Positions 8,878 to 23,652 of a stretch of DNA of 34,204 nt are shown here, one piece after another (position 1 is the stretch's first letter; every line of letters starts with the position of its first letter). Source of the DNA: Minisyncoccales bacterium. GTDB lineage: Bacteria > Patescibacteriota > Minisyncoccia > Minisyncoccales > RBG-13-42-11. The stretch spans positions 1 to 34,204 of the forward strand of contig JBNAUV010000003.1 in NCBI GenBank assembly GCA_049700655.1, in the 5' to 3' direction. Under the pieces are notes generated by a model. The model made no database searches. It was not told where the DNA came from and saw only the letters and a program-made list of their open reading frames with translations. The position numbers and the translations under genes were made by a program.

Positions 8878-9882
8878 TTACCATTGATAAGCGACTATTA
8901 GCCAGTTAAGTATTTTTTTCATTTCTACAAAACGATCATCACTACCATTGGCGCCCAAAACAAGATTAATTAAATAACCCTTATCTTTCGGCGCTACGGT
9001 CACCAAAAGCAAACAACCCCCTGCTCTTTCCGTATAACCTGTTTTGCCGCCTAAAATTCTTTTTTGCCAGCCATTTAAATCTTTTCCATTATTTAATAAT
9101 TGATTTGTGTTAATTAGTTCTGGACCGTAAAGCGAATAACTGGGCAGAGAAAGAATTTGCCAAATTAAATCTTTCTCTAATAAATTTTTAGCAAATTTTG
9201 CCAAGTCACGAGCGGTTGAATAGTTTATTTCACTTATCGGTCTGGCCGGAACAAGATTTTCTGGATCAAGGCCAGATGAATTATAAAAGAAAGTGTTTTC
9301 CAACCCCATTTTTTTAGCTGTTTCATTCATTAAATTCACAAAAATTGTTTCATTTATTCCTTCATAATCGTTGGCCAGAGCATAGGCTGCCGCATTACTT
9401 GATTCCATTAATAAAGGATAAAGAAGATATTCGGTTGGAAAGACTTGACCAGCAACTAATTTTTTCTTGCTTTCGCCCGGTTGGCTGGCAGCCAATGTTG
9501 AAATGGTAATGTTTTTATTCAAATCATAATTTTCTAAAACAACCAGGGCTGTCATTAGTTTGGTTAAACTAGCAATTGGTCGAATTTCATCGCTATTTTG
9601 TTCAAAAAGAGTTTTTTCTCGGCCATTTTTATCAACAAACACAGAGATGGCTGACTTGGCTGTTAAATTTAATTCCGGCGCTCCTCTTTTTTTAAATGGT
9701 TTGGCTTCATTAAATTTTTCTTCTAAAACTAATTCCGCTTTAAATACCCGGGTTTGTTGGCTAAGGCTATACCAATAAAAAAAATTATTTAAATGTTTGT
9801 ATCCTCCGCCAACATTAATTAAACACAGGGTTAGCAATAGTAAAACAAAAATGCCAATAGCTATTTTCTCGCGATAAACCAT
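8878..9882 (-). CDS. D-alanyl-D-alanine carboxypeptidase (peptidase S11)
   Basis: SxxK (ASLTK), SxN (SSN), KTG; N-terminal anchor. Confidence 0.9.
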   Translation of the reverse strand: MVYREKIAIGIFVLLLLTLCLINVGGGYKHLNNFFYWYSLSQQTRVFKAELVLEEKFNEAKPFKKRGAPELNLTAKSAISVFVDKNGREKTLFEQNSDEIRPIASLTKLMTALVVLENYDLNKNITISTLAASQPGESKKKLVAGQVFPTEYLLYPLLMESSNAAAYALANDYEGINETIFVNLMNETAKKMGLENTFFYNSSGLDPENLVPARPISEINYSTARDLAKFAKNLLEKDLIWQILSLPSYSLYGPELINTNQLLNNGKDLNGWQKRILGGKTGYTERAGGCLLLVTVAPKDKGYLINLVLGANGSDDRFVEMKKILNWLIVAYQW

Positions 9883-9892
9883 TTTTATAATT

Positions 9893-11287
9893 TTATTTCT
9901 TTTTGATAACTTTGATGTGAACTTCTTTTAATTGATTCTCTTCAACCCCTGAGGGCGCATCCATCATTAAATCGCGGTTGTCGCCAGTTTTAGGAAACGC
10001 GATTACTTCACGGATATTTGGTTCATTTAAAAGAATAGCTAAAAATCGATCAATGCCCGGCGCCATGCCGCCATGTGGCGGCACGCCATATTCAAAAGCC
10101 GATAATAAATGACCAAATTTTTTTCTAATATCTTCTTTTTTATGCCCCATTACTTCAAAAACTGATTCCAAAATTTTTGGTTGATGCGTTCTTAAACTAC
10201 CGCCGCCAATTTCATAACCATTTAAAACCAAATCATATTGATAAGCCAAAATTTTTTCCGGGTGTTTTTTGATTTCTTCCAGATTGTCGGTTTGCGGCCG
10301 GGTAAAAGGATGATGTACAGCGTCCCAGCGATTTTCTTCTTTTTTCCACTCAAACATCGGAAAATCAACAATAAAACAAAAAGCCAGCTCATCAGGATTA
10401 TTTTTATTATTTCTTAAATCCGGCTTATCGCTTTGATAATTTTTCATTGCTGTCGCATAAGAAATGCGCGGAAAAGGAATTTGTTTAATTCTCTTTTCGG
10501 GAAAGAATTTTTTTATTAAGGCGATGAAAAGGCCCTCCACTAATTTTAGAATATCTTCCTGTTCAATAAATGACATTTCTATGTCTAATTGAGTGAATTC
10601 GGCTTGTCGGTCGGCGCGCGGGTTTTCGTCGCGAAAACAGCGGGCAATTTGAAAATATTTTTCCAAACCAGCCACCATTAAAAGTTGTTTGTATTGTTGA
10701 GGAGATTGCGGTAAAGCGTAAAATTTTCCCGGTTGTAGGCGGGCTGGCACAATAAAATCGCGCGCGCCCTCGGGCGTGGCTTTGGTTAAAATTGGCGTTT
10801 CCACCTCAATAAACCCTTCATTGATTAAGAATTCTCGCATAAAATGAATGATTTTTTGTCGCCAAATGAGATTATTTTTCATTCTTTCTCTTCTCAAATC
10901 CAAATAACGGTATTTTAAACGTTTTTCTTCATTTATCTTATATCCATCATCATCAATATTAAAAGGCAAAGTTTTGGCTGAAGAAAAAATTTCCAAATTT
11001 TCAGCCACTAGTTCTACTTGACCGGTTTCAATTTTTGGATTTTGCATAGATCTTGGTCGCTCTTTAATTATTCCTTCAACGCTGATCACCCATTCTGGTC
11101 GTAATTTTTCAGCCAATTTAAAAAGTGGTTCATTTTCTCCTGAAAAAATCACCTGCAACAAACCGCTTCGATCTCTTAAATCAATAAAGAGAATTTGGCC
11201 ATGCGCTCGCCAATTGTTTACCCAACCGCAAACCTTTACTTTTTGATTAATATATTTAGTTGTTTCTTTAATTGGTATTCTTTCCAT
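9893..11287 (-). CDS. aspS: Aspartate--tRNA ligase, short form lacking the GAD insertion
   Basis: [37 protein letters not shown]; 464 aa. Confidence 0.96.
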
Positions 11288-11327: not shown

Positions 11328-11345
11328 CCGCGGCGAATGCCGCGG
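11328..11345. terminator. GC-rich hairpin, probable terminator between the response regulator and aspS
   Basis: CCGCGGC-GAAT-GCCGCGG with AT-rich flanks. Confidence 0.5.
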
Positions 11346-11367
11346 TCTCTCTTTTTAACTATATTTT

Positions 11368-11439
11368 ATTCCAACATTCTTAAGAATGTTGGAATGTTCT
11401 ATAGTTACATTATTCTAACATTCTGCAGAATGTTAGAAT
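11368..11439. repeat. Two 28-bp perfect palindromes in tandem
   Basis: ATTCCAACATTCTTAAGAATGTTGGAAT (11368-11395) and ATTCTAACATTCTGCAGAATGTTAGAAT (11412-11439). Confidence 0.92.
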
Positions 11440-11467: not shown

Positions 11468-11839
11468 TTAAGTATTTTCTAAATATTTTTTAACTTTGTC
11501 AACGATTTCTTGGGGCGTGAAGTCGGTTTTGATTAAGTAATCTTTGATGCCTAATTTTTTTGCTTTTTCGCGTTTTTCTGGATGGTCATAATTAGAAAAA
11601 GCGATCACCGGCACTGAGGCAAATTCTTTTTGGCCGCTAAACCACTCCATAAAGCCAATGCCATTCTTTTTGGGCAATAAAATGTCTAACAAAATTAAAT
11701 CCGGCTTAATTTTCGGCACCGCCTCAATCGCCTCTTCGGTAGAGCCCGCTAAAAACGCTTCAAACCCCTCTTTTCTAAACTTCTCTTGATACATCTCACC
11801 TAACATTTTTTCATCTTCAATAATTAATATTTTTTTCAT
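11468..11839 (-). CDS. Single-domain response regulator (receiver only)
   Basis: ILIIEDE, PDLILLDILLP, YLIK; no output domain. Confidence 0.93.
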   Translation of the reverse strand: MKKILIIEDEKMLGEMYQEKFRKEGFEAFLAGSTEEAIEAVPKIKPDLILLDILLPKKNGIGFMEWFSGQKEFASVPVIAFSNYDHPEKREKAKKLGIKDYLIKTDFTPQEIVDKVKKYLENT

Positions 11840-11863
11840 ATTTTTTAATTTTAATTTTTTAAT

Positions 11864-13435
11864 TTATTTTATGGGTAATTCTACAATAAATGTGCTGCCT
11901 TTGTCTTTGCCAGTTGATTCTACCCAGATTCTGCCGCCATGGGCTTCAGCAAACTTTTTAGCCACGTACAAACCAATGCCCGTGCCGCTTACATTGAGTT
12001 CTGTGCCAGCGGAAGCGCGCGAAAACATCTCAAAAAGTTTATTGATTTCTTCCTGTGTCATTCCCTCGCCTGTATCAGCTACCGCAATTTTTAATTTTAA
12101 ATTTTCAATTTTTAATTTTATGGTTATTCCGCCCTGTTGAGTGTATTTTATCGCATTATCAATCAAATTTAAAATCACCTGCCTTAATTTATCTTTGTCC
12201 GCGGTAATCGGCGGCAACTTTTCTTTTGGTTTTACTATCTTCAAATATAATCCCTTCTTCTCCGCGTTAATTTTTAATTCACTAACAATATTTTCAATTA
12301 ATTCTCCAATAGAAATTGGCTCCCATTTAAACTCTATTCGACCCGCCTCTAATCTGGAGATGTTCAATAAATCATTGACTAATTTAATCAATCTTTCATT
12401 GCTCGCATAAACATTTTCCATTGGCTTTTGCATTTTTCCCGGTAATGGCCCATAAGTGCCCTCTAAAATCATTGAAATATACCCCTTGATAGCGGTCAAG
12501 GGCGTCCTCAACTGATGGGAGGCAATAGAAATAAACTCTGACTTGGCCTTGGACAACCTTTCTACTTCTTGCCTTAAACTAATTTCTCTTAAGGTGGCTT
12601 TAATGAGGTAATAGCCAAATAAACAAAAGAGGATAAAGATAGCGCCATTTAGGATTTTAAAGCTCAATTGGGGCGCAGTGATGGTTTGGATAATCAAAAG
12701 AAGGACAATAAAACAAACCAAGATTTCAGTTAAAATGACCTTGATATCAAACAACTGTTTCTTAACAATGGCATAGGCAGTAAAAGCGAGAAAGAAGATA
12801 GAGGAATAATTTCCCAAGCGGTAATATTGTTGACTGCCAATAATAAAAGGTAAAAAACTATTGAAAAACAATATTGAACCAATAAAAATCCCTAAACCAA
12901 GAAAAAAATATTTAAATTGTTGCTTTTCAATATTTCCTGCCTTTTTATATCGTTTAAAAATATTAAAGAAAAAAAGACCCACTAACACAAGGAAAAATGT
13001 TCCAAAAAAAGGAAGAAACAATTTCCCATAAACGACATCAAATCCCCATGGCTGAATGACTATTTTTTTAACCATTAAAGATGTAAAAAGGATTAAAATT
13101 GTCAATAAAGCACCTAAAGAGAATAATGTTAAAGAAATTTTTGATGAAATTTTTCTCTCTTCAGGAAAACTCAAAGAAAAAAGGAATAAAAAAATTATCC
13201 ACCAAAGCACTGCTCCATAAGTAATTTTAGTCAAAAGTATAGCCAAGGAAGGATTAGTAAGCGGGAAAAATTCAGACAAATAAGCACTCCCTATGAATAA
13301 AGTAGTAAAAATACAAATAAAAAGGAAATAACAATTAACATTCCTTTTTCTATCTTTGAAATAAACTAAAAAACCAAGGAACAAACTCAACAAGGTAATA
13401 ATACTTACCAAAATTATCTCCCAGAGCGGAGTCAT
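11864..13435 (-). CDS. Membrane sensor histidine kinase (HisKA_7TM-like + HisKA + HATPase)
   Basis: About 280 aa multi-TM N-terminus, H-box SHQLRTP, N-box NLIDNAIKY, DTGEG, GTGIGL. Confidence 0.93.
   Translation of the reverse strand: MTPLWEIILVSIITLLSLFLGFLVYFKDRKRNVNCYFLFICIFTTLFIGSAYLSEFFPLTNPSLAILLTKITYGAVLWWIIFLFLFSLSFPEERKISSKISLTLFSLGALLTILILFTSLMVKKIVIQPWGFDVVYGKLFLPFFGTFFLVLVGLFFFNIFKRYKKAGNIEKQQFKYFFLGLGIFIGSILFFNSFLPFIIGSQQYYRLGNYSSIFFLAFTAYAIVKKQLFDIKVILTEILVCFIVLLLIIQTITAPQLSFKILNGAIFILFCLFGYYLIKATLREISLRQEVERLSKAKSEFISIASHQLRTPLTAIKGYISMILEGTYGPLPGKMQKPMENVYASNERLIKLVNDLLNISRLEAGRIEFKWEPISIGELIENIVSELKINAEKKGLYLKIVKPKEKLPPITADKDKLRQVILNLIDNAIKYTQQGGITIKLKIENLKLKIAVADTGEGMTQEEINKLFEMFSRASAGTELNVSGTGIGLYVAKKFAEAHGGRIWVESTGKDKGSTFIVELPIK
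12459..12553 (-). repeat. 95-bp direct repeat, copy 1 (H-box)
   Basis: Identical to 15032-15126; encodes [32 protein letters not shown]. Confidence 0.95.
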
Positions 13436-13439
13436 GAAA

Positions 13440-14981
13440 TTAAATTACCATTTTTGGTTTTGGCCGTGATATATCATCTTGAAATAGTCCTTGACCAGAA
13501 AGAAAAATTTTAACTTGTGGCAAAACCCTGTCCGGGCTAATCCGATAAGCATCTTGATAATCAATGTTCGTTTTTAATAAACATTGATGCACAAGGTTTT
13601 GATATTTTCTTTCTAAATCGGCTTTTTCTTGGGGTGTGGGTTTTAGGTTGGGTTTTAATTCCAAATAAACTACCAATTTTACCTCTAAATTTTTATTGGT
13701 TTGAGTGGTAAGTTTAAAACTTTTTATTTCTTTGGCTTCTGGCATATTTAACAAGGGAGATAAATTTTGAGGTGAAATTTTAGCGCCTGAAAAAATAGTA
13801 ATCATATCATCGCTTCTTCCTAGAAAGATAAGAAATGGCCATTTAAAATATCCTTTTTGCCAACCTTCTTTTTCGAGTAAAGCAGGAATAGTGTAGCCAC
13901 AACTTTTTAATTTTTTTTCCATTTCTGAAAAAGAAACAATTTTTGCTGAATCCCCTATTTTATATCTAATTATAGGTACCAGGCTGGCAGTAGCGGTAAC
14001 AAGTAGATTATCTTCTTTTTCTTCTAAAAATATACTAAGGGGATTATATTGAAATAAGGAAAAAGGGGATTTTTGATCAAGCAATATTGATCTGAATTTC
14101 TCATCTTTTTTTGCTATTTTTTGAATTATCATTGGTAAAAGGGGTGTAAATCCTATTAATCCTGTATCTCCGGCAGCAAGAAGATTAAAAATTCGCCAAC
14201 CCTCTTTTCTTTCAGGATCAATTTTGGAAAGAATATACTCTTGAAAATCTTCTGATAAGTACTCACCCCCTAATTGGAGTTTTAAATTAAGTTTTTCCCA
14301 TTTTATTCCTTGTTCATCTCCTTCATCTAAAATTTTTCTTAAAAATGACGGAATAGTACTGATAATTACTTGGGAATAATTTTCTCCTACTTCTTTTAAA
14401 ATTTTCAAAACCATTTGAGAATCACAGCCGGTAGTGACATAAGTGATGTTGTATTTTCCGAGCACTCTTCCCATTAATAAATTAATAGTATAACCAAATG
14501 ACCAAACACCTAAAGGAGTAGTGTTTATAAAAAGAGTGTTATTTGAAGGTGAACAAATATCCCACATGTAATCAAGCCAACTGAGCCATCCTTGAAAAGC
14601 AGAAAAAAATATTTTTCTCCGATACAAAAATGGAGTAGGAATTCCAGTAGAACCAGAAGAAAAACATATTCCAAAAACTTTGTCAAACTCTTTACCGGTT
14701 AAATCAGCGAGGGAATATTTATGAAGAAAATTTTTTTTAGAACTAATTGGTACTTTTTCTTGAAAATCTTTTAAATTTTGAATTGTTTTAGGGTCAACAT
14801 TGTGTTTTTTGAGAAAATCCTTGTAAGCCGGCACTTTCTCTGCTGCCTCATGGAAGGTTCTTAAAGCCATTTTTTCTCCTTTTTTCTCCCAAAAGGAAGC
14901 TGGCATTGTGGTCATAAACCAAATTGCCCTTTTTGGGTTAGACATGATAAAGTTTTGCATTAAATCTCCTATCTTGGACAT
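13440..14981 (-). CDS. Phenylacetate-CoA ligase/F390 synthetase-like adenylate-forming enzyme
   Basis: VPAYKDFL, SSGSTG P-loop, GGE, PIIRYKIGD, GRSDD. Confidence 0.85.
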   Translation of the reverse strand: MSKIGDLMQNFIMSNPKRAIWFMTTMPASFWEKKGEKMALRTFHEAAEKVPAYKDFLKKHNVDPKTIQNLKDFQEKVPISSKKNFLHKYSLADLTGKEFDKVFGICFSSGSTGIPTPFLYRRKIFFSAFQGWLSWLDYMWDICSPSNNTLFINTTPLGVWSFGYTINLLMGRVLGKYNITYVTTGCDSQMVLKILKEVGENYSQVIISTIPSFLRKILDEGDEQGIKWEKLNLKLQLGGEYLSEDFQEYILSKIDPERKEGWRIFNLLAAGDTGLIGFTPLLPMIIQKIAKKDEKFRSILLDQKSPFSLFQYNPLSIFLEEKEDNLLVTATASLVPIIRYKIGDSAKIVSFSEMEKKLKSCGYTIPALLEKEGWQKGYFKWPFLIFLGRSDDMITIFSGAKISPQNLSPLLNMPEAKEIKSFKLTTQTNKNLEVKLVVYLELKPNLKPTPQEKADLERKYQNLVHQCLLKTNIDYQDAYRISPDRVLPQVKIFLSGQGLFQDDISRPKPKMVI

Positions 14982-14985
14982 AGAT

Positions 14986-16020
14986 TTAAAAATGATTAAT
15001 TATTATACCACAATATAAAAATTCAAAGAAACCCTCTAAAATCATTGAAATATACCCCTTGATAGCGGTCAAGGGCGTCCTCAACTGATGGGAGGCAATA
15101 GAAATAAACTCTGACTTGGCCTTGGAAAGTCGATCAACTTCTTCGTACAAATGTTGAATTTCTTCACGCCTCTTTATTTCTAAAAGTACAGATTTGATTA
15201 AAAAAATACCTGCAATACTAACAAAAGATAACAAAATAATATTTATTAATTTTTCTTGCCAATTTTCAGCTAAAAATATTTTAATTAATAAAAATATCCA
15301 TATTGAAAAAGTCAATAATTCAGTAGCAATAATTTTAATATTAAGAAAATGGTACCTTATAATAACCCAAGCAACTGCAATAGTTAGAAATAAGGTATAT
15401 AATGTAATCAAATTTGTTAATTCGAATTTCGAAAATAAAACAGGTAATAATAAATTTGTTATTAAACTAAAACTTATAAAGAAAAAAAGTCCAGATATTA
15501 ATATTCGATTCAATTTTTTAATTAATATATCTTTAGCTTGTTGATATCTTTTAATAATTTTAATAAAGGCCAAAATTAAACATCCCAACAAGAAAAATGA
15601 GTATAGCCAAATTCCCCAACCAAAAATTATCTCAGAAAAATTTTCTTTTATAATAATATCTTTGACCAAAAAAGATGAAGAGGAAATAAGGATAGATATA
15701 ATAGCTAAAACTAAGCTTATTATAAATAATTGTTTATTTGGTTTATCATCTGAAGGAAAAACTTCTGTAAAAAGTAGAAGGGCCCAAACAGCGATAGTTG
15801 TGCTAATAAAAATTAATCGGTTGCACCAAAGAACAATTTCTGTATTTTTTTCAAAATTAGAAAAATAATTAACAATAATCCACGTAACAATTCCTAGTGT
15901 CATTAAAAAGAAATACTTACTTGAACGCAAACTAAAACTATGAACTAAGATTAAGATAGCTAAAAGTAAATTAAAAATAACCCCTAATAATAAAATTAAG
16001 AAAGGAAAAGAAATAGTCAT
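14986..16020 (-). CDS. Truncated membrane sensor: multi-TM domain plus H-box, no ATPase domain
   Basis: Paralogue of 11864-13435; homology ends at MILEG and is followed by 14 unrelated residues. Confidence 0.8.
15002..15012 (-). promoter_or_regulatory. Extended -10 promoter for the ligase gene
   Basis: TGTGGTATAAT 20 nt upstream of the ATG at 14981. Confidence 0.6.
15032..15126 (-). repeat. 95-bp direct repeat, copy 2
   Basis: Identical to 12459-12553 and in the same coding phase. Confidence 0.95.
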
Positions 16021-16058
16021 ATATACTATTGGGTAATTATATCATAAATATAAAAAAT

Positions 16059-16096
16059 AAAAACCCTATTCACTTAATATTTTGAATAGGGTTTTT
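16059..16096. terminator. Intrinsic terminator after the GNAT gene
   Basis: AAAAACCCTATTCA-loop-TGAATAGGGTTTTT. Confidence 0.75.
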
Positions 16097-16102
16097 GTCT
16101 TC

Positions 16103-16735
16103 TTACCCTACCACATATTGATAATATGTGGGGTTTTTTTGATAAACCGAACTAAGTTGGTCTTTGATTGGAATAATAATGGGTATTGATGGTGAACCCA
16201 TATATTCCATTACAGGTCCAATTTCTATTAGCGACCAACCCAACCATTGCAGTAATTTATAAGCATTTAAATCCATTCCGGCCACATAAAAATCAATTTT
16301 TTCAATCAATGCAAACAAATAAAGTGCCTTATAAAGACCCCACGATATTCTTTTGCCTCTGGCAGTTTTTTTAACTGCTAAACTGCCAATTTCTGCTGAT
16401 TTAGCATCAAACAACATTTTAATTAAACTTTCACTTTCTGCAAAAAACTTATTTTCCCAAACAGCCAATGTTTCAAATGGTGGTCCTGGAGTAACCCTAA
16501 CAGTTCCCATTAATTCCTCTCCATTCAGCAACGCAACAATATAAATTGATGGCTCGGGATCTGGTATAATTCCATCTGGGTAGGGCGTGGTTATATACCC
16601 TACTTCCAAATAAACATCATGTCTTAATTTTTTTGCTTCTTTAATCTGTTTTCGATCATTAATTGTCTGGAATACTATTCCATCTTTTTGATGTAATTTC
16701 ATTATTAAACTTGGTTCAATTTTTTCAATTTTCAT
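16103..16735 (-). CDS. GNAT-fold N-acyl amino acid synthase (FeeM/LuxI-like)
   Basis: LRHDVYLEVGY, GTVRV, AEIGSLAV, IGPVMEYMGSP; strong SD. Confidence 0.72.
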   Translation of the reverse strand: MKIEKIEPSLIMKLHQKDGIVFQTINDRKQIKEAKKLRHDVYLEVGYITTPYPDGIIPDPEPSIYIVALLNGEELMGTVRVTPGPPFETLAVWENKFFAESESLIKMLFDAKSAEIGSLAVKKTARGKRISWGLYKALYLFALIEKIDFYVAGMDLNAYKLLQWLGWSLIEIGPVMEYMGSPSIPIIIPIKDQLSSVYQKNPTYYQYVVG

Positions 16736-16767
16736 GACTCTCTCCTCCTTTTTTATTTTTATTATTT

Positions 16768-17557
<790 letters not shown>

Positions 17558-17576
17558 ATTAAATATGATATCACAT

Positions 17577-17753
17577 TCAAAAAATTAAGAAAATACAATA
17601 AAAACAAACTATAGATTTACAAAATATAAATTTCCGAAACTTAATAGTACTTATTAATGAGATTTTTTTATCTCTAAAATAAACTGAAATTCCTAAAAAC
17701 AGACTCATTAAAACAATAACAACAACTAAAAGTATTTCCCAAATTGAGATCAT
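17577..17753 (-). pseudogene. Relic N-terminus of a third membrane sensor (not in the ORF track)
   Basis: MISIWEILLVVVIVLMSLFLGISVYFRDKK matches MTPLWEIILVSIITLLSLFLGFLVYFKDRK of the full kinase; homology shifts frame at an A7 run. Confidence 0.8.
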
Positions 17754-17758
17754 AAAAT

Positions 17759-17895
17759 CTAAATTAATAATTTAGGCTTTGCTCTCTTTTTATCTTCTTC
17801 AAACGGTCCTTCTTTGTATAGAAATATCTTAACAATAGGTGAAGCCAATTCCGGATTTAACCTGTAGGCATCGCGATAATCAAAATTATTTTTAA
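17759..17895 (-). pseudogene. C-terminal relic of a second PaaK-like ligase
   Basis: NFDYRDAYRLNPELASPIVKIFLYKEGPFEEDKKRAKPKLLI vs NIDYQDAYRISPDRVLPQVKIFLSGQGLFQDDISRPKPKMVI. Confidence 0.85.
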
Positions 17896-18044
17896 GTGAA
17901 AAAGGGACACGTCCATTTTTGGGGACCAGGTTAAACAATGACGGCATCTTGAGGTGTTACCAAAGTATCTCATCTTGTGCAGGTTTTGTTAAAATTTTCT
18001 TGAGTAAATAATTGATTTTAAACCTTTACGCTTTTACGCTAATG

Positions 18045-19001
18045 TTATTCTTTTGATTTGGTTATATTGTAAACTTCGGGGTGTTTTTCTAGAATTTGCA
18101 AATATTTCATAAATTGGTTATACATTTTTTTCTCGTGATTAATGATGCGGTCTTGATAACTTTGCTCTATATTATCTCTAATTATTTGAATGGCTTCTTC
18201 ATGATTCTTGCCGGAACGGTCTACCCAAGCCTGATATTTATCAATTAAAGTAACAATTAAATATTTATCTAAAAGTTCAAGATTTATGGCTTCAGCGGGT
18301 AAATCGCCATTAATCATGGCTGGATCATAGCCTTCTAAAGTATGATGAGAACTGGCCACAATAATTAAATCTTGAGGTATATCTTTATCGCCATATTTTT
18401 TAAGTAATTGATATGTCCAATAATCATGTTCCCGCCATAAATCTATTAACCGGTGTTTATTTAAATCTAATTTTTCTTCAATAATCGCCTTTTTCTCTTT
18501 GTAAAAAATATGTAATGTTAAGGTCTCTAAATACCTTTTAATTTCGTCCTTATTAGAAAAATTTTCAATCTCAATTGCTTCGTCAAGAGTTAATTCTCTG
18601 ATTTTTTTATTTTTAAATTTCGGATCTTGCGGGTTAAAATACTCTGTATTAAACATTTGGTTAATAATAATTTTTCTTTGTCTTTTATTTGCTTCAACCG
18701 GACCTGATTTACCAATATCATGGAATAAACAAGTCAATTTTATTTCAGAAAGGTTAAAATTTATTTTTTCTTTTTCAATATCTTCCCATAAAATTTCAAC
18801 AATTTGTTCCATTTTAACCGCATCTTCAAAGTGGGACTCTGGCAAATTGGATAATTCAACCAAACGTTCAAAAAGTTCAGGAAATTTTTCTATTTCAAAA
18901 TCAACTTCGTGAAATTTTTTAAAGACATATTCGGTGCCGGTCCGCTCTTTTGTTTCAAATTTCGCTTCTTCTTTGTTTGTAGGTATTTTTTCGTAATTCA
19001 T
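18045..19001 (-). CDS. HD-domain protein
   Basis: H...LFHDIGK...HD...SHH...D pattern. Confidence 0.7.
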   Translation of the reverse strand: MNYEKIPTNKEEAKFETKERTGTEYVFKKFHEVDFEIEKFPELFERLVELSNLPESHFEDAVKMEQIVEILWEDIEKEKINFNLSEIKLTCLFHDIGKSGPVEANKRQRKIIINQMFNTEYFNPQDPKFKNKKIRELTLDEAIEIENFSNKDEIKRYLETLTLHIFYKEKKAIIEEKLDLNKHRLIDLWREHDYWTYQLLKKYGDKDIPQDLIIVASSHHTLEGYDPAMINGDLPAEAINLELLDKYLIVTLIDKYQAWVDRSGKNHEEAIQIIRDNIEQSYQDRIINHEKKMYNQFMKYLQILEKHPEVYNITKSKE

Positions 19002-19337: not shown

Positions 19338-19460
19338 TCAATCAAGAGGAGTCAGTCCCTCACATTCTAAAATAAATTCATAAATTTCGAATAATAATTT
19401 AATGTTTGCTGCAATTAGTTCATCGCTTTTTTTAAGCAAATCACGAACTTCTTTCTTCAT
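19338..19460 (-). CDS. Small 40-aa hypothetical protein (not in the ORF track)
   Basis: MKKEVRDLLKKSDELIAANIKLLFEIYEFILECEGLTPLD; GGAGGTG SD; ATGA overlap with the upstream gene; terminator downstream. Confidence 0.65.
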   Translation of the reverse strand: MKKEVRDLLKKSDELIAANIKLLFEIYEFILECEGLTPLD

Positions 19461-19723
19461 TTGTCACCTCCCCCTTCTGTTTTTTGTTTTTTGGTCAAAC
19501 CTTCTAATTCTAAAATTTCCACTATTACTTCCCGATTATCGGGTTTGACCAGTTTCAAATGGCCGCCCTCCATAATAGTTTTAGCCACCAAAAGTAGCAG
19601 TTTTACTGCCACGGTAGCTAAAGCAGGAATTTTTAAATTTAGTTCCTTCATCACCTGCTCGTACACTTCAATTTCCGCTTGGCCCAAACGTACTATTACC
19701 GTCAGCCGATCATCTTTTCCCAT
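19457..19723 (-). CDS. Putative ribbon-helix-helix DNA-binding protein
   Basis: Alternating strand RLTVIVRL followed by two helices; strong SD; own promoter. Confidence 0.55.
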   Translation of the reverse strand: MGKDDRLTVIVRLGQAEIEVYEQVMKELNLKIPALATVAVKLLLLVAKTIMEGGHLKLVKPDNREVIVEILELEGLTKKQKTEGGGDK

Positions 19724-19849: not shown

Positions 19850-20686
19850 TTAAAGAGCATAACAAATCACTGGCTGCGGCGCTAAGATGACTTCAGCACC
19901 AGCGAGGATTTTAATTATTGTTTCCACCACTATGGCGGTTGTCAAATAAGTGGTGGTTCCCAGTTGCGGAAATGACAGTTTGCCACTCCTTATTTCCTCG
20001 CCATATTTTTTCAAAAACTCTTTTAACGCACTATTATCTGGAATCCCTTTAAGAGTTTTATTAATTAACATTTCATAAAATTCAAATCCATAAATTTTTT
20101 TACCCTCAAAGATTTCAATCAAAGATGGAGTTTGTGGCGTTAAAATCAAACAATAAGCTATCCAGCCGCAATTAAGCGGATGAAATTCAATCTTATCGTG
20201 TTTTCGTGCTGCTTCGCTAATCAACCACATTGCTTGATTAGGATCAGCCATATTAACAATAAAATCATTTCTTTCTACTGCCGCACTAATATCTTCTTGT
20301 CTGCGGAGGAACTGCGGATAAACCTCAGTCTCAGCCTCGATATTGATTTCCTGAATTTTTTTGGCAGTTACTTCTGCCTTGTTGAAACCAACATCAAGCT
20401 GATTAAAAACCTGACGATTCAGATTATGTACTTCCACCTTATCGCCATCCCAAAGTTCAAAATGGCAAAATCCAGTTCGGCTGGCTAAAACCGCAATTTG
20501 ACTGCCCAAACCGCAACCAACTAGTAAAACTCTTGCTTGTTTAATTTTTTCTTGTGTTTCTGAAGAAATTAATCCCCAATTTCTTTCATAAATTTCCATT
20601 CTTTTTTCCCTCCTTTTTTCTATTTGGGCAATTACCCGTGGCATAATTTCTGCCACAATTTCCGGTCTTCCTGCTCTTCTTTTCAT
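19850..20686 (-). CDS. ThiF/E1-like adenylyltransferase, second paralogue (alternative start 20599)
   Basis: YERNWG, VGCGLGS, DGDKVEVHNLNRQ, GFNKA. Confidence 0.88.
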   Translation of the reverse strand: MKRRAGRPEIVAEIMPRVIAQIEKRREKRMEIYERNWGLISSETQEKIKQARVLLVGCGLGSQIAVLASRTGFCHFELWDGDKVEVHNLNRQVFNQLDVGFNKAEVTAKKIQEINIEAETEVYPQFLRRQEDISAAVERNDFIVNMADPNQAMWLISEAARKHDKIEFHPLNCGWIAYCLILTPQTPSLIEIFEGKKIYGFEFYEMLINKTLKGIPDNSALKEFLKKYGEEIRSGKLSFPQLGTTTYLTTAIVVETIIKILAGAEVILAPQPVICYAL

Positions 20687-20750: not shown

Positions 20751-20779
20751 ATTATACTTAAAACCAATAATTTTGTCAA
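20751..20779 (-). promoter_or_regulatory. Consensus sigma70 promoter
   Basis: TTGACA-17 nt-TATAAT. Confidence 0.8.
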
Positions 20780-20794
20780 ATAGAAATTTTAGTC

Positions 20795-22102
20795 TTAAAA
20801 ATGTTTTGACAAACTATAAATGTCGCCGGCGCCCATAATGATTAAAATATTAAAATGAGAGAAATTTTTCTGTAAATAAGATAGAATTTTATTTTTCTTT
20901 AAATAAATTACATTTTCTCTGGCTATTTTTTTGACTAATTTTTGAGCGTTAACTTTGGCTTTAATTTGCGGATTTTCTCGGCCAGCCACACTATAAATAT
21001 CAGTAATAATTACCTGATCAATTGGACAATGTTGAAAAACTTTCACAAAATCATTAAATAAATAATAGGTCCGTTGATATTGATGGGGTTGAAAAACACA
21101 CCAGATTTTTTTATCAAAATATTTCTGGCGCGCCGCTTCTAAAGTTGCTTTTATTTCAGCTGGATGATGACCATAATCGTTAATGATTTTTAATTTCAAA
21201 TTTTTAATTTTTAATTCTAGCTCTTCAAAACGGCGCCAAGCGCCTCTGTATTGGCTGAGTGTATAAAAAGTGATCTTGTTGGGAATTTTTAATAATCGAG
21301 CAATAGTTAAAACCGCTAAACTATTGGCCACATTATGTTCGCCGGGAATTTTTAAAATTTTTCTTAATTTTTTACTTTCTGGTTGGCTGAGAGAATAATT
21401 TTTTATTTTAATCGGTAATTGCACAATTTGTTTTTGTAGTTGGACAATGTCTTGGTCATCTTTATTGGCCACCAAAATACCGCTAAAAGACAAACGAGAA
21501 ATAAATTGTTTAAAAGCGTTAAAATAATTTTTAAAATTTTTATAATAATCCAAATGATCAGGGTCTAACGAAGTTAAAACAATAATATCAGGTGAATAGT
21601 TTAAAAACGAAGCGAAATGCTCGTCAGCTTCAATTACCAAAAATTGGCTTTTTCCGGCTCGATAATTACTATTGCCAAATTCTTTTAATTTTGTACCAAC
21701 AATAACTGTCGGGTCTAATTTTGCTTTAGTTAATAAAAGGCCTATCATAGCGGTAACAGTGCTTTTGCCATGTGTGCCGCAAACGGCAATAGTCAAATAA
21801 TCTTGGGTTAATTCACCTAAGGCTTGAGGATAAGAAAGAATTTTTAAATTTAATTTTTGGGCAGCTTGTAATTCTGGGTTGTTGGCTTGAACGGCTGGAC
21901 TATAGACAACCAAATCTAAATTTTTATTAAGATTGCTTTTTTTATGCCTGCCAATTAAAATTTTTGCCCCTTTTTTCTTTAATAGTTCAGTAATTTCCGA
22001 GATAACCAAATCAGAACCGCTAACTTGATGGCCTTGATTTAAATAATGTTGGGCTAAAGCAGAAACGCCAATACCGCCAATACCAATGAAATGAATACGC
22101 AT
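20795..22102 (-). CDS. murC: UDP-N-acetylmuramate--L-alanine ligase
   Basis: HFIGIGGIGVS, GTHGKST, EADE, DHLDYY, DYGHHPAEI, FQPH, MGAGD. Confidence 0.96.
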   Translation of the reverse strand: MRIHFIGIGGIGVSALAQHYLNQGHQVSGSDLVISEITELLKKKGAKILIGRHKKSNLNKNLDLVVYSPAVQANNPELQAAQKLNLKILSYPQALGELTQDYLTIAVCGTHGKSTVTAMIGLLLTKAKLDPTVIVGTKLKEFGNSNYRAGKSQFLVIEADEHFASFLNYSPDIIVLTSLDPDHLDYYKNFKNYFNAFKQFISRLSFSGILVANKDDQDIVQLQKQIVQLPIKIKNYSLSQPESKKLRKILKIPGEHNVANSLAVLTIARLLKIPNKITFYTLSQYRGAWRRFEELELKIKNLKLKIINDYGHHPAEIKATLEAARQKYFDKKIWCVFQPHQYQRTYYLFNDFVKVFQHCPIDQVIITDIYSVAGRENPQIKAKVNAQKLVKKIARENVIYLKKNKILSYLQKNFSHFNILIIMGAGDIYSLSKHF

Positions 22103-23058: not shown

Positions 23059-23652
23059 TTAATCTAAATTAAAATAGCGACGCAAAAATTCCTCGTTGTC
23101 AATCTCTTTTGCTCGGATTAATAAAATATAAGGTTGAATGTTAAAAATGGCTTTAATAAATTCGATTTCATTTTCACATTCATAAGGGTAGACAAAAACA
23201 CTTTTCTGAATTTTATAAAATCCCAATTCTTTAAGTTTCTCCCGCAAAACTTCCCGAGCAAGTTTCTTTTTGTTTGGAATATCAAAAATTACAATTCTCC
23301 AAATTTTATCCCATTTTTTAGGTTTTGGGATTACTAAATCTTGAAATTTATATTTTAAAACTTTTTCTTCTCCTTTTTTAGTAATTTTAATAATAGTTTC
23401 TCCATTTTTTGTTTCTTTAAATTCTATTATTCTTTGTTTCCTCATTCTTTTTAAAGCAGCTCTTAATCTTCTTTGGTCATATTTTTTCCACTCTTCAACA
23501 AGTGGCTTCGCAGCAATTAAAACTCCAGGGGCCACCATAGCTAAAGTCAAAAAAGCTCCTCCAGCTAAAGCCAATAAAACTTTCTTAGTAATTTCTTTTG
23601 TTTGTTTTACCCTTTCTGCTTGTTTAATTCTTTTTATTTGTTTTGGTTCCAT
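23059..23652 (-). CDS. PaaX-like protein with winged-helix-like region and Cas2-like domain
   Basis: ITKKG wing; WDKIWRIVIFDIP..REVLREKLKELGFYKIQKSVFVYPY; no cas1 or array nearby. Confidence 0.8.
   Translation of the reverse strand: MEPKQIKRIKQAERVKQTKEITKKVLLALAGGAFLTLAMVAPGVLIAAKPLVEEWKKYDQRRLRAALKRMRKQRIIEFKETKNGETIIKITKKGEEKVLKYKFQDLVIPKPKKWDKIWRIVIFDIPNKKKLAREVLREKLKELGFYKIQKSVFVYPYECENEIEFIKAIFNIQPYILLIRAKEIDNEEFLRRYFNLD

Follow-up and report, generated by a model that had tools for sequence, protein, structure and literature searches.

Why should several genes for small-molecule enzymes, each group followed by a membrane sensor, be stacked ahead of a single kinase and a single receiver in a bacterium whose genome measures 539 kb? 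The question is raised by positions 11468–17947 of the window, the whole 34,204-nt stretch of DNA analysed here, from a Minisyncoccales bacterium assembled in 30 contigs. In the direction of transcription (all genes given below lie on the minus strand), the locus carries a ligase relic and a sensor relic (relic C); ThiF1, an acyltransferase (GNAT) and sensor B; ligase A and kinase A; and a receiver. An earlier note on this DNA had read the genes in this way, and all eight minus-strand open reading frames lie where it had placed them. It had overlooked that the whole island occupies a variable chromosomal slot, bounded upstream by MurC (20795–22102; Pfam Mur ligase domains) and downstream by aspartyl-tRNA synthetase (AspRS; 9893–11287; NF001750, 8e-204). 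MurC synteny is kept in locus L058 and in family relatives. The order kinase–receiver–AspRS is kept at five of eight family loci (L137, L138, L139, L141 and L143) and likewise in L058, L064 and L023, and family locus L142 has a short kinase fragment at this site. The slot also holds an orphan gene for a 318-aa HD-domain protein (18045–19001; PF01966, 3e-5), which the earlier note had passed over and which is a candidate member of the system only; no PDB relative was found for it, and it is present in none of the 25 family genomes.

Kinase A (11864–13435; Pfam HisKA_7TM at residues 1–285, HisKA and HATPase_c) is the sole complete kinase at the locus. The stand-alone receiver (11468–11839; 123 aa; PF00072, 3.5e-20) is without an output domain and is 83% identical to the receiver of L058; the genome's four receivers all have open frames, each about 125–131 aa long. 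Sensor B (14986–16020) matches HisKA_7TM (2e-10) and the first 29 of 66 HisKA positions, and its HATPase domain is absent. Its HisKA_7TM domain is intact, and the protein is cut 20 residues past the phospho-acceptor histidine and ends in an unrelated 14-aa tail; its best homologues (40–47% identity) are full-length kinases of 517–562 aa. Kinase A (12459–12570, residues 289–326) and sensor B (15032–15143, residues 293–330) share a direct repeat at the H-box, missed by the earlier note, whose two copies are 95% identical over 112 nt. Outside the repeat, sensor domains A and B are about 27% identical, and third-codon positions are 90–100% identical within the repeat versus about 35% in the sensor domains. 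Relic C (17577–17753; a 58-aa open reading frame) begins with ~35 residues from the start of a 7TM sensor and continues into unrelated sequence; it is 50% identical to kinase A residues 2–35 and 62.5% to the start of the L058 sensor, and is cut elsewhere than the H-box. The ligase relic (17759–17947; 62 aa) is what remains of a ligase C-terminus (the final ~45 residues), with 52% identity to residues 468–513 of ligase A and 67% to the L064 ligase. Its upstream breakpoint is sharp, with no ligase homology upstream in any frame.

Locus L058 is syntenic with the window from MurC through AspRS–Dac–MraY. It contains ThiF2, ligase A (72% identical) and a sensor A that is 64% identical to the sensor half of kinase A and cut at the H-box. 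Downstream of this truncated sensor lie other genes and, beyond these, another sensor, about 32% identical, that is joined to a core orthologous to the catalytic half of kinase A (75.7% nucleotide identity). The ligase-A/sensor-A pair is core-fused in the window and displaced in L058, and it is in this evolutionary sense that the earlier note's phrase 'interchangeable signal/receptor pairs' is supported. Within loci, H-box identity in 81-nt windows is 0.93 for the present locus, 0.97 for L058 and 0.84 for L060, against a between-locus mean of 0.574 and a 99th percentile of 0.78 (625 pairs); the jump extends to third-codon positions, and L017 contains a 300-nt repeat of 87% identity. The truncated sensors examined, five of five, stop 5–34 residues past the phospho-acceptor histidine. 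Among family relatives at the same site, the core is 60–64% and the receiver 52–65% identical, whereas the sensor domain is just 28–37% identical and the upstream enzyme gene differs from genome to genome. Our reading of these footprints is that H-box recombination exchanges enzyme-plus-sensor cassettes ahead of a fixed kinase core and receiver; the same repeat would be expected equally from H-box gene conversion and from insertion with duplication.

In pilE/pilS and hsdS shufflons, homologous recombination swaps variable parts before a constant part. The present locus resembles them in its constant expressed 3′ part, its alternative 5′ parts and the short conserved repeats at the joins. It differs from them in that the window locus bears no sign of reversible or programmed switching, the cassettes hold whole enzyme genes, and the displaced sensors, which are truncated, seem to be decaying. 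Such a pattern suits replacement in the course of evolution better than phase variation.

The linkage of enzyme and sensor extends across Patescibacteria. The PaaK-like ligase family has profile matches in 45 of 400 sampled genomes, and at 31 of 39 loci the ligase is followed, on its own strand and at most four genes downstream, by a HisKA_7TM kinase (29 with all intervening genes co-oriented and 10 with the sensor immediately next). Among closer metagenome relatives (44–72% identity), the sensor directly follows the ligase in 10 of 10. Homologues of the LuxI/FeeM-fold acyltransferase are present in 12 of the 400 genomes; all 12 adjoin a HisKA_7TM sensor, and six adjoin a ThiF. Because enzyme-to-sensor adjacency recurs in this way in other genomes, the arrangement in the window is more than chance. 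Across 32 loci, ligase divergence tracks that of the sensor domain (r = 0.51 by Spearman correlation; partial correlation 0.50; p = 0.001 by permutation) and not that of the catalytic core, although sensor and core belong to one polypeptide (core: r = 0.15; partial correlation 0.06; p = 0.24), figures whose significance is overstated, as these are Mantel tests applied to related sequences; the core may simply hold less signal. GNAT-linked sensors group together on the sensor tree (6 changes versus 12.1 in shuffles, with 0 of 500 as low), and they are not one clade, since the starred branches force at least three changes; sensor B is unplaced on a long branch. There is no simple rule pairing one sensor type with one enzyme type. 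The sample contains roughly 225 HisKA_7TM matches; about 80% of them do not lie beside this ligase or GNAT, and these have heterogeneous upstream genes. The interpretation in the earlier note accordingly survives in part: the co-occurrence and co-variation that it had proposed to check were both found, but its picture of sensors feeding one kinase probably fails for B and C, which look like displaced remnants of earlier fusions and not working inputs. A truncated sensor in L066 offers a parallel, having a dN/dS of 0.35 versus 0.05 for the neighbouring ligase.

Ligase A (13440–14981; 513 aa) is assigned to the PaaK family of adenylate-forming ligases from distant matches, to TIGR02155 (PaaK; 5e-12, 45 bits, below the cut-off of 646) and to PDB entry 4r1l (2e-6). 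Its model (pLDDT 90.7) has BT_0428, PaaK1/2, ClxA, AjiA1 and HCL as best folds. The predicted fold is like that of PaaK-family members, including AjiA1 and ClxA (TM-score 0.6–0.7), and alignment of the family shows a conserved Ser/Gly-rich loop, SSGSTG. Unlike those members, to which it is just 15–18% identical, ligase A is about 80 residues longer, and it belongs to a CPR-centred family of its own (120 homologues, mostly CPR) that no Pfam model matches above cut-off. AjiA1 and ClxA form ester or amide bonds independently of CoA. The acyltransferase (16103–16735; 210 aa; PF21926, 7e-9, 36.1 bits versus a cut-off of 27) was modelled at pLDDT 82, and its top PDB folds are LasI, FeeM (2g0b), BjaI, MesI and TofI. 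ThiF1 (16793–17557; 254 aa), an E1-like adenylating enzyme, matches PF00899 (8e-39), NF006077 (1e-53) and the 679-position ThiF–nitroreductase model NF011424 (2.5e-46). ThiF1-like genes flank the GNAT in L073, L074, L076 and L078, and ThiF1 is the acyltransferase's putative partner. ThiF2 (19850–20686; 278 aa; PF00899, 5e-31), also overlooked earlier, is a short ThiF, 56–59% identical to the one that immediately precedes the ligase in L058 and L064; ligases of this clade usually have a gene of this type as partner. Among members of the larger ligase clade, the ThiF partner matches the ThiF half of Rv1355c/TrzS (3.5e-81), the oxidase partner matches its C-terminal half (1.2e-17) and an Acg-family FMN oxidoreductase model (3e-59), and a ScyB-like amino-acid dehydrogenase (5e-93) also occurs.

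Similar enzymes are found in N-acyl amino acid and oxazolone pathways. The chemistry that the earlier note invoked, including the OxzAB oxazolone pathway, is correct according to the available parts of PMC12596934, PMC10404671 and PMC12856293. There, acyl-oxazolone pathways such as OxzAB (review PMC12596934), TyzABC (PMC10404671) and TrzAS (PMC12856293) combine N-acyl amino acid synthase, ThiF-like enzyme and flavin oxidoreductase activities, and the available text of PMC12856293 gives their physiological role as open. In keeping with these activities, a FeeM/LuxI-fold putative N-acyl amino acid synthase adjoins a ThiF-like enzyme in the window; in relatives, a ThiF that matches the N-terminal half of Rv1355c/TrzS adjoins an Acg-type flavin oxidoreductase. 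Unlike these pathways, the window contains no flavin (nitroreductase-type) oxidase, the sole nitroreductase in the genome being a classical one of 173 aa on a different contig, and the ligase cassettes have a PaaK-family ligase in place of an acyl-CoA-dependent acyltransferase. The pathways as described in the available part of PMC12856293 also have no dedicated sensor kinase, unlike the window.

It is proposed, at roughly even chances, that this is a composite two-component locus of stacked enzyme and HisKA_7TM cassettes, in which the enzymes' N-acyl-amino-acid-type product is sensed by the paired 7TM domain. The fixed module at the conserved MurC–AspRS site would be the kinase catalytic core (HisKA from the H-box on, and HATPase) with the stand-alone receiver. 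Before it would be stacked several cassettes, each made up of small-molecule enzyme genes and then their own HisKA_7TM sensor domain, with only the last (ligase A and sensor A) joined to the core. Recombination at or near the H-box, bringing in newer cassettes, would have disconnected sensor B (together with ThiF1 and the acyltransferase) as well as relic C and the ligase relic, whose former partner was probably ThiF2. What the analysis shows is the gene anatomy, the enzyme–sensor linkage and co-variation, and the footprints of recombination; for the chemistry, ligand recognition and output, we infer that a ligase and a ThiF, or the acyltransferase and a ThiF, would produce an N-acyl-amino-acid-type compound by a route resembling the first steps of acyl-oxazolone biosynthesis, and that the paired 7TM domain would sense this compound or a precursor, leading to phosphotransfer to the receiver.

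The strongest competitor, itself rather unlikely, is a substrate-sensing metabolic operon, in which the 7TM domain responds to a compound from outside, such as an aromatic acid or amino acid supplied by a host, which the adjacent enzymes activate, detoxify or assimilate, with no self-made signal. Enzyme–sensor co-variation is equally expected if both bind a common substrate, and PaaK-family enzymes are classically catabolic. The neighbours also suit metabolism: an aminotransferase and a prephenate dehydrogenase/dehydratase adjoin the L058 cassette, the larger ligase clade includes its amino-acid dehydrogenase, and other HisKA_7TM kinases adjoin amino-acid decarboxylases and methyltransferases. 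However, the fold predicted for the acyltransferase is shared with synthases of autoinducers and of N-acyl amino acids, the known role of ThiF-like enzymes is activation for biosynthesis and not catabolism (available text of PMC12596934), an MFS transporter within the L013 cassette suits export without proving it, and so small a genome retains little catabolism to regulate.

Neutral decay, by which pseudogene fragments arose from deletions in a shrinking genome and adjacency is inherited synteny with no functional coupling, is considered improbable. The relics are just 58 and 62 aa long, constraint on the L066 truncated sensor is relaxed, and related genomes are non-independent samples. Against this, adjacency persists across more than 40 genera despite shuffled gene order inside cassettes, the ligase and the GNAT, which are unrelated enzymes, both go with one sensor family, the sensor co-varies with the enzyme and not with its own catalytic core, the ligase-A/sensor-A pair occupies different positions in the window and L058, and at five loci the sensors are cut at closely similar points by the H-box.

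There is a similarly small chance that ThiF and ligase act on a protein or peptide, by ubiquitin-like C-terminal activation or ribosomal peptide modification, with the kinase regulating or sensing the modified peptide. For most characterised ThiF-like enzymes, the carboxylate that is adenylated belongs to a protein, peptide or tRNA (available text of PMC12596934), ThiF1 and ThiF2 also match ThiS/MoeB-type and Cap2-type models, and an 88-aa open reading frame ending in GGGDK adjoins ThiF2. That frame, however, matches no Pfam model and did not turn up in relatives, and no conserved small open reading frame lies beside the ligase or GNAT cassettes at other loci; ThiF1 is closest to the ThiF domains of ThiF–nitroreductase fusion models, and the long ThiFs match the cyclase half of TrzS. 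Although the window comes from a fragmented metagenome assembly and repeats of 80–300 nt can mislead assemblers, chimeric joins at the conserved H-box repeat are a very improbable source of the truncated sensors, as the sensor B copy runs into 46 nt of unique sequence and then the intact ligase A start, with no collapsed repeat, and the independent assemblies L058, L060, L066 and L017 have similar junctions with differing breakpoints and downstream genes.

The proposed composite locus invites comparison with quorum sensing of the LuxM/LuxN and LuxI types. As in these, a gene for an autoinducer-synthase-fold enzyme adjoins one for a polytopic membrane histidine kinase, whose membrane domain could bind the synthase product. 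Unlike in these systems, the kinase is non-hybrid and without a phosphorelay, its sensor is of the HisKA_7TM family, the receiver lacks an output part that binds DNA, a homoserine lactone is an improbable product, and one catalytic core is common to several cassettes. To our knowledge, no swappable signal-and-receptor system is known in this bacterial group; here, a bacterium with a tiny genome has what looks like one.

The candidate signalling island occupies the minus strand at 11468–17947, within a slot bounded by MurC (20795–22102) and AspRS (9893–11287). On the transcribed strand, its order is ligase relic, relic C, ThiF1, GNAT, sensor B, ligase, kinase A and receiver, with intergenic spacing of 4–97 nt. 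The gene-by-gene description in the earlier note was borne out by ORF and domain matches on this strand. The ligase relic (17759–17947) is a 62-aa ORF matching the C-terminal 46 residues of ligase A at 52% identity, and relic C (17577–17753), a sensor remnant, is a 58-aa ORF with 50% identity to kinase A residues 2–35. These are followed by ThiF1 (16793–17557; PF00899, 8e-39) and a FeeM-like GNAT acyltransferase (16103–16735), which scores 36.1 bits against PF21926 (gathering cut-off 27). Sensor B (14986–16020) consists of a HisKA_7TM domain and only positions 1–29 of the 66 in HisKA; it carries no HATPase_c, and the Pfam domain search did not recover a complete HisKA_7TM-kinase architecture in it. 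The PaaK-like ligase (ligase A, 13440–14981) is 513 aa in length. Kinase A (11864–13435) is the sole complete kinase at the locus and holds the full 7TM–HisKA–HATPase_c architecture in one protein (PF16927, 8.7e-9, 36 bits, cut-off 28.6; HisKA, 2e-17; HATPase_c, 1e-28), with a receiver-only protein alongside (11468–11839; PF00072, 3.5e-20).

An orphan HD-domain gene, an 88-aa ORF, a second ThiF gene (ThiF2, 19850–20686) and MurC precede the island on the minus strand, and downstream of the receiver are AspRS, a D-Ala-D-Ala carboxypeptidase homologue and MraY. The HD-domain protein (18045–19001) contains HDIGK and, later, HHTLEGYDP, a stretch reminiscent of the HD-GYP signature; searches of the PDB and of 25 genomes of the same family found no relative of this protein. 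The 88-aa ORF (19457–19723), which ends in GGGDK and has no Pfam match, shares an ATGA overlap with a second ORF of approximately 40 aa. As a strong GC-rich hairpin with a T-run (19307–19289, minus strand) follows this pair, ThiF2 and the two ORFs look like a transcription unit of their own. Promoter-like sites in the region occur at chance level overall (48 seen, 44.6 expected). Two perfect 12/12 sigma-70 consensus matches (TTGACA, 17 nt, TATAAT) lie on the minus strand, one upstream of ThiF2 (20751–20779) and one within the 3′ part of ThiF1, approximately 130 nt ahead of the acyltransferase start (16869–16897). Rfam and tRNA scans of the region returned no matches. The spacer between the receiver and AspRS contains a 7-bp all-GC hairpin (11328–11345) and a 26-nt inverted repeat with abutting arms (11356–11407, 85% complementary).

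The genome (539 kb, 30 contigs) encodes two histidine kinases and four receivers, all of them stand-alone. The receiver frames, on contigs C1, C3, C9 and C21, span just 124–131 aa and therefore leave no output domain. A 197-aa protein with a PaaX central Cas2-like domain (23059–23652; PF20803, 5e-22) is encoded 2.4 kb upstream of ThiF2, and PaaX-like genes occur at only four other fetched loci (L012 and L018, which are one contig, L033 and L118). A tie between this gene and the PaaK-like ligase was dropped, as it is absent from the syntenic locus L058 and has a cassette nearby at one place only.

A direct repeat of 112 nt with 95% identity, which the earlier note had missed, spans the phospho-acceptor (H-box) regions of sensor B and kinase A. 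In a codon alignment, the 7TM domains of the two proteins share 5–46% protein, ~45% DNA and ~35% third-codon identity. At kinase A residues 293–326, identity to sensor B leaps to 93–100%, third positions included. Past the repeat, sensor B continues for 14 unrelated codons to a stop, which is followed 4 nt later by the ligase start. Since identity at silent sites is not explained by protein conservation, the repeat is a recombination footprint.

H-box identities were compared in 81-nt windows after removal of duplicate loci. Between loci, identity had a mean of 0.574 and a 99th percentile of 0.78 (625 pairs, 36 genes), and within loci it reached 0.93 in the window, 0.97 in L058, 0.84 in L060 and 0.75 in L017; at L046, where two full kinases stand in tandem, it was 0.53. 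Identity between the window's own two H-boxes (0.93) exceeds that between the H-boxes of the orthologous sensors A in the window and L058 (0.76), so the H-box travels with the resident core (HisKA from the H-box onward plus HATPase) and not with the sensor. Gene conversion homogenising the H-boxes could be an alternative to insertion. Relic C was cut at a site other than the H-box.

Exchange at this position is visible in L058, a metagenome contig syntenic with the window (AspRS 89%, MraY 90% and MurC 72% identity). Its order is ThiF2 (56%), ligase A (72%), a truncated sensor A (64%), four ORFs of 200, 285 (ThiF), 199 and 84 aa, a full kinase, the receiver (83%) and AspRS. The sensor of this full kinase is only ~32% identical to sensor A, and its catalytic half is orthologous to that of the window (75.7% nucleotide identity over 795 nt). 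An 80-nt H-box repeat with 98% identity is shared by the truncated sensor gene and the full kinase gene. The same enzyme–sensor pair is therefore joined to the core in the window and detached from it in L058. Between MurC and the ThiF2–ligase cassette, L058 also carries (4905–8933) a class IV aminotransferase, an FAD-binding oxidoreductase and a fused prephenate dehydrogenase/dehydratase, biosynthetic genes that are unusual in so reduced a genome and could provide an aromatic substrate.

Similar arrangements were found elsewhere. The H-box is present three times in L060, where a truncated gene resembling sensor A is separated from the full kinase further down by genes for a flavoprotein, a transglutaminase-like protein and a DFP-family protein. 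In L017, from a distant lineage, a 328-aa sensor stops just past SHQLR and shares a 300-nt repeat (87%) with the downstream kinase. A 130-aa C-terminal ligase fragment 6 kb downstream of that kinase (11810–12507) is another cassette relic, and it is followed by stop-containing frames resembling a GAF domain end and an ANTAR-like helix. L066 is a mosaic, with 93% identity to the L067 kinase over the first 852 nt and a 3′ end and downstream DNA that follow L058. Among eight loci fetched around AspRS in family relatives, five (L137, L138, L139, L141 and L143) retain kinase–receiver–AspRS, L142 has a shorter kinase fragment, L140 has a receiver without a kinase and the L136 sequence stops at the receiver. 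In the loci that have these genes, identity is 60–64% for the core and 52–65% for the receiver, and only 28–37% for the sensor domain. The gene ahead of the kinase also varies among these genomes, from a canonical AMP-binding ligase with a shikimate-dehydrogenase-like protein to methyltransferases and proteins of no recognised type.

From these comparisons, we infer that the island was built by successive cassette replacement. The starting point would have been an operon like that of L064 (ThiF2, ligase C, a core-fused sensor C, receiver and AspRS), in line with the closer match of the ligase relic to the L064 ligase (67% identity) than to ligase A (52%). The core would then have been captured by the ThiF1–acyltransferase–sensor B cassette, and next by the ligase A–sensor A cassette. 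The decay states of C, B and A agree with their order along the operon. The anatomy of the locus and its evolutionary comparisons together form the well-supported part of the analysis.

The displaced sensors are probably no longer in use, judging from their sequences. Between the truncated sensor domain of L066 and the full one of L067, dN/dS is 0.35 (dS 0.14), and for the adjacent ligase it is 0.05 (dS 0.03); sensor B has its best homologues among full-length kinases. That truncated sensors are maintained as co-sensors is not favoured, given the relaxed constraint in L066, though L135 does encode 7TM-only proteins. There, two tandem proteins of 219 and 236 aa (4733–6063) end directly past the membrane domain, upstream of three small genes and a 940-aa HisKA_7TM–GAF kinase, so stand-alone sensor-domain proteins may be normal in some lineages.

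The pairing of enzyme and sensor extends well beyond the window. A ligase family profile matched 45 of 400 other sampled Patescibacteria genomes, from many families, and only one of 25 genomes of the window's own family. Forty ligase loci were fetched, of which 39 with a recognisable ligase ORF were counted (L021, with no annotated ligase ORF, was left out). At 31 of the 39, a HisKA_7TM gene in the same orientation follows the ligase by no more than four genes; all genes in between share that orientation at 29 of these, and at 10 the sensor directly succeeds the ligase. Three further loci have the sensor at five genes and five have none within five genes, one of the five being a region that stops after two genes. 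ThiF occurs within three genes of the ligase at 31/39 loci, and a nitroreductase-type protein or oxidase at 22/39. In genome and metagenome scans, closer ligase relatives usually show the order short ThiF, ligase, HisKA_7TM kinase and receiver, with AspRS next in L064, L017 and L058. Acyltransferase homologues are rarer than the ligase (12 of 400 other genomes, at most 32% identity). Within the 1.5-kb flanks examined, all 12 have a co-oriented HisKA_7TM sensor or kinase as neighbour; candidate synthase and receptor genes are linked at 12/12 GNAT and 31/39 ligase loci. ThiF is adjacent to the acyltransferase at six of the 12, four of these being ThiF1-like.

HisKA_7TM itself is widespread (168 of 400 other genomes, ~225 matches), and the majority of these kinases therefore have neighbours other than the ligase or GNAT. 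The upstream genes at 40 further HisKA_7TM loci (37 usable) are heterogeneous: a scan of 43 upstream proteins found five methyltransferases, three Orn/Arg decarboxylases, single cases such as a histidine decarboxylase and an aminotransferase, and many proteins without a Pfam match.

Co-variation was examined in 32 loci with a ligase and a full-length kinase. Duplicates were removed ahead of trees and tests (L011, identical to L010; L018, identical to L012; L070, close to L069; L063 and L065, close to L064; L062, close to L061). L010 and L011 have identical gene order, ORF lengths and match scores, and one record is titled as a Kerfeldbacteria genome and the other as an ‘uncultured Gammaproteobacteria’ bin, one of which is probably mislabelled or contaminated. 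Ligase distances correlated with sensor-domain distances (Spearman r = 0.51; partial r = 0.50 with the core controlled; permutation p = 0.001), and they showed no such correlation with distances in the catalytic core of the same protein (r = 0.15; partial r = 0.06; p = 0.24). The core acts here as an internal control, though one that may hold less signal, and Mantel tests are liberal for related sequences. A FastTree ligase tree of 57 rows contains two well-supported clades: one of 21 rows, which holds the window and has a short ThiF or a methyltransferase as partner, and one of 36 rows, partnered by a long ThiF and an oxidase. On the sensor tree (76 rows), GNAT-linked sensors cluster (6 changes against a shuffled mean of 12.1; 0/500 shuffles as low), at least three origins are needed for them, and sensor B sits unplaced on a long branch. 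The tree rules out one sensor clade per enzyme type.

The predicted chemistry resembles that of N-acyl amino acid and acyl-oxazolone pathways. The acyltransferase model (pLDDT 82) has the three-layer autoinducer-synthase fold, closest to LasI (TM 0.71), FeeM (2g0b), BjaI, MesI and TofI, and the protein is a candidate N-acyl amino acid synthase of the acyl-oxazolone type. The ligase model (pLDDT 91) adopts a PaaK-type two-domain adenylate-forming fold, nearest to BT_0428 and PaaK1/2 and then to ClxA, AjiA1 and 2-hydroxyisobutyryl-CoA ligase (Foldseek E-values of 6e-24 to 4r1l and 2e-22 to PaaK2, 2y4o), and it falls below the cut-off for phenylacetate-CoA ligase (TIGR02155, 45.1 bits against 646.3). 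For ThiF1, the nearest PDB entry is 9egb, an unnamed protein of ThiF type for which a literature search found no publication, followed by TcdA. Among NCBIfam models, ThiF1 is nearest to NF006077 and the ThiF part of the ThiF–nitroreductase model NF011424 (2.5e-46; 158 bits, cut-off 1170), and it matches Rv1355c at only 1e-18. In the larger ligase clade, the long ThiF matches the N-terminal half of the Rv1355c family (3.5e-81), the oxidase is an Acg-family FMN oxidoreductase (201 bits, cut-off 199) and a dehydrogenase is nearest to the tryptophan dehydrogenase ScyB (5e-93, below cut-off).

Rv1355c is TrzS, a fused cyclase–oxidase that produces N-acyl tryptazolones (PMC12856293). The Tyz study describes TyzA as a FeeM-like N-acyl amino acid synthase, TyzB as a ThiF cyclase and TyzC as a nitroreductase-superfamily oxidase (PMC10404671). 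Given the enzyme matches to these proteins, the cassettes hold parts of acyl-oxazolone chemistry. In ligase cassettes, the PaaK-family ligase may form the amide in the acyltransferase's stead. The window contains no nitroreductase-superfamily flavin oxidase, and the genome has only a 173-aa nitroreductase, on contig C20. Any product of the window would thus go no further than an N-acyl amino acid or a saturated ring, and the locus, which borrows enzymes from oxazolone pathways, is not a full member of them.

A signalling function for these cassettes, as the earlier note had supposed, is a hypothesis for which metabolic sensing is the rival. The proposed working plan is that of quorum-sensing synthase–receptor pairs, but the window lacks a hybrid kinase or relay and a known output and is not a full member of that class either. 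A tentative reading, which we consider less likely than not, is that the core and receiver between MurC and AspRS are a docking site for exchanged cassettes. Strains would then capture and exchange whole units of signal synthase and cognate 7TM receptor by H-box recombination, and each tiny epibiotic lineage would own a private N-acyl amino acid or oxazolone-type channel, with displaced sensors recording earlier ones. HisKA_7TM kinases would then be the long-sought acyl-oxazolone-like receptors. The tryptazolone authors note that the compounds resemble signalling molecules and propose such a role as possible (PMC12856293).

The literature search found no paper on signalling in Patescibacteria that involves HisKA_7TM kinases, N-acyl amino acid synthases or oxazolone enzymes, and nothing relevant on sensor-cassette recombination in histidine kinases. 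Relative to the literature found, two aspects are new: that these enzymes are systematically paired with HisKA_7TM sensors in Patescibacteria, and that enzyme-plus-sensor cassettes are stacked and exchanged at the H-box ahead of one constant core. Patescibacteria have minimal genomes and depend on other cells, and to our knowledge almost nothing is known about how they sense their partners or one another. If the pairing is functional, it would provide a candidate signal-and-receptor system for the phylum, and the locus suggests a place to seek an acyl-oxazolone receptor. The H-box junctions show how a kinase can gain a new input along with the enzymes for its synthesis or processing, a form of rewiring of general interest for the evolution of two-component systems.
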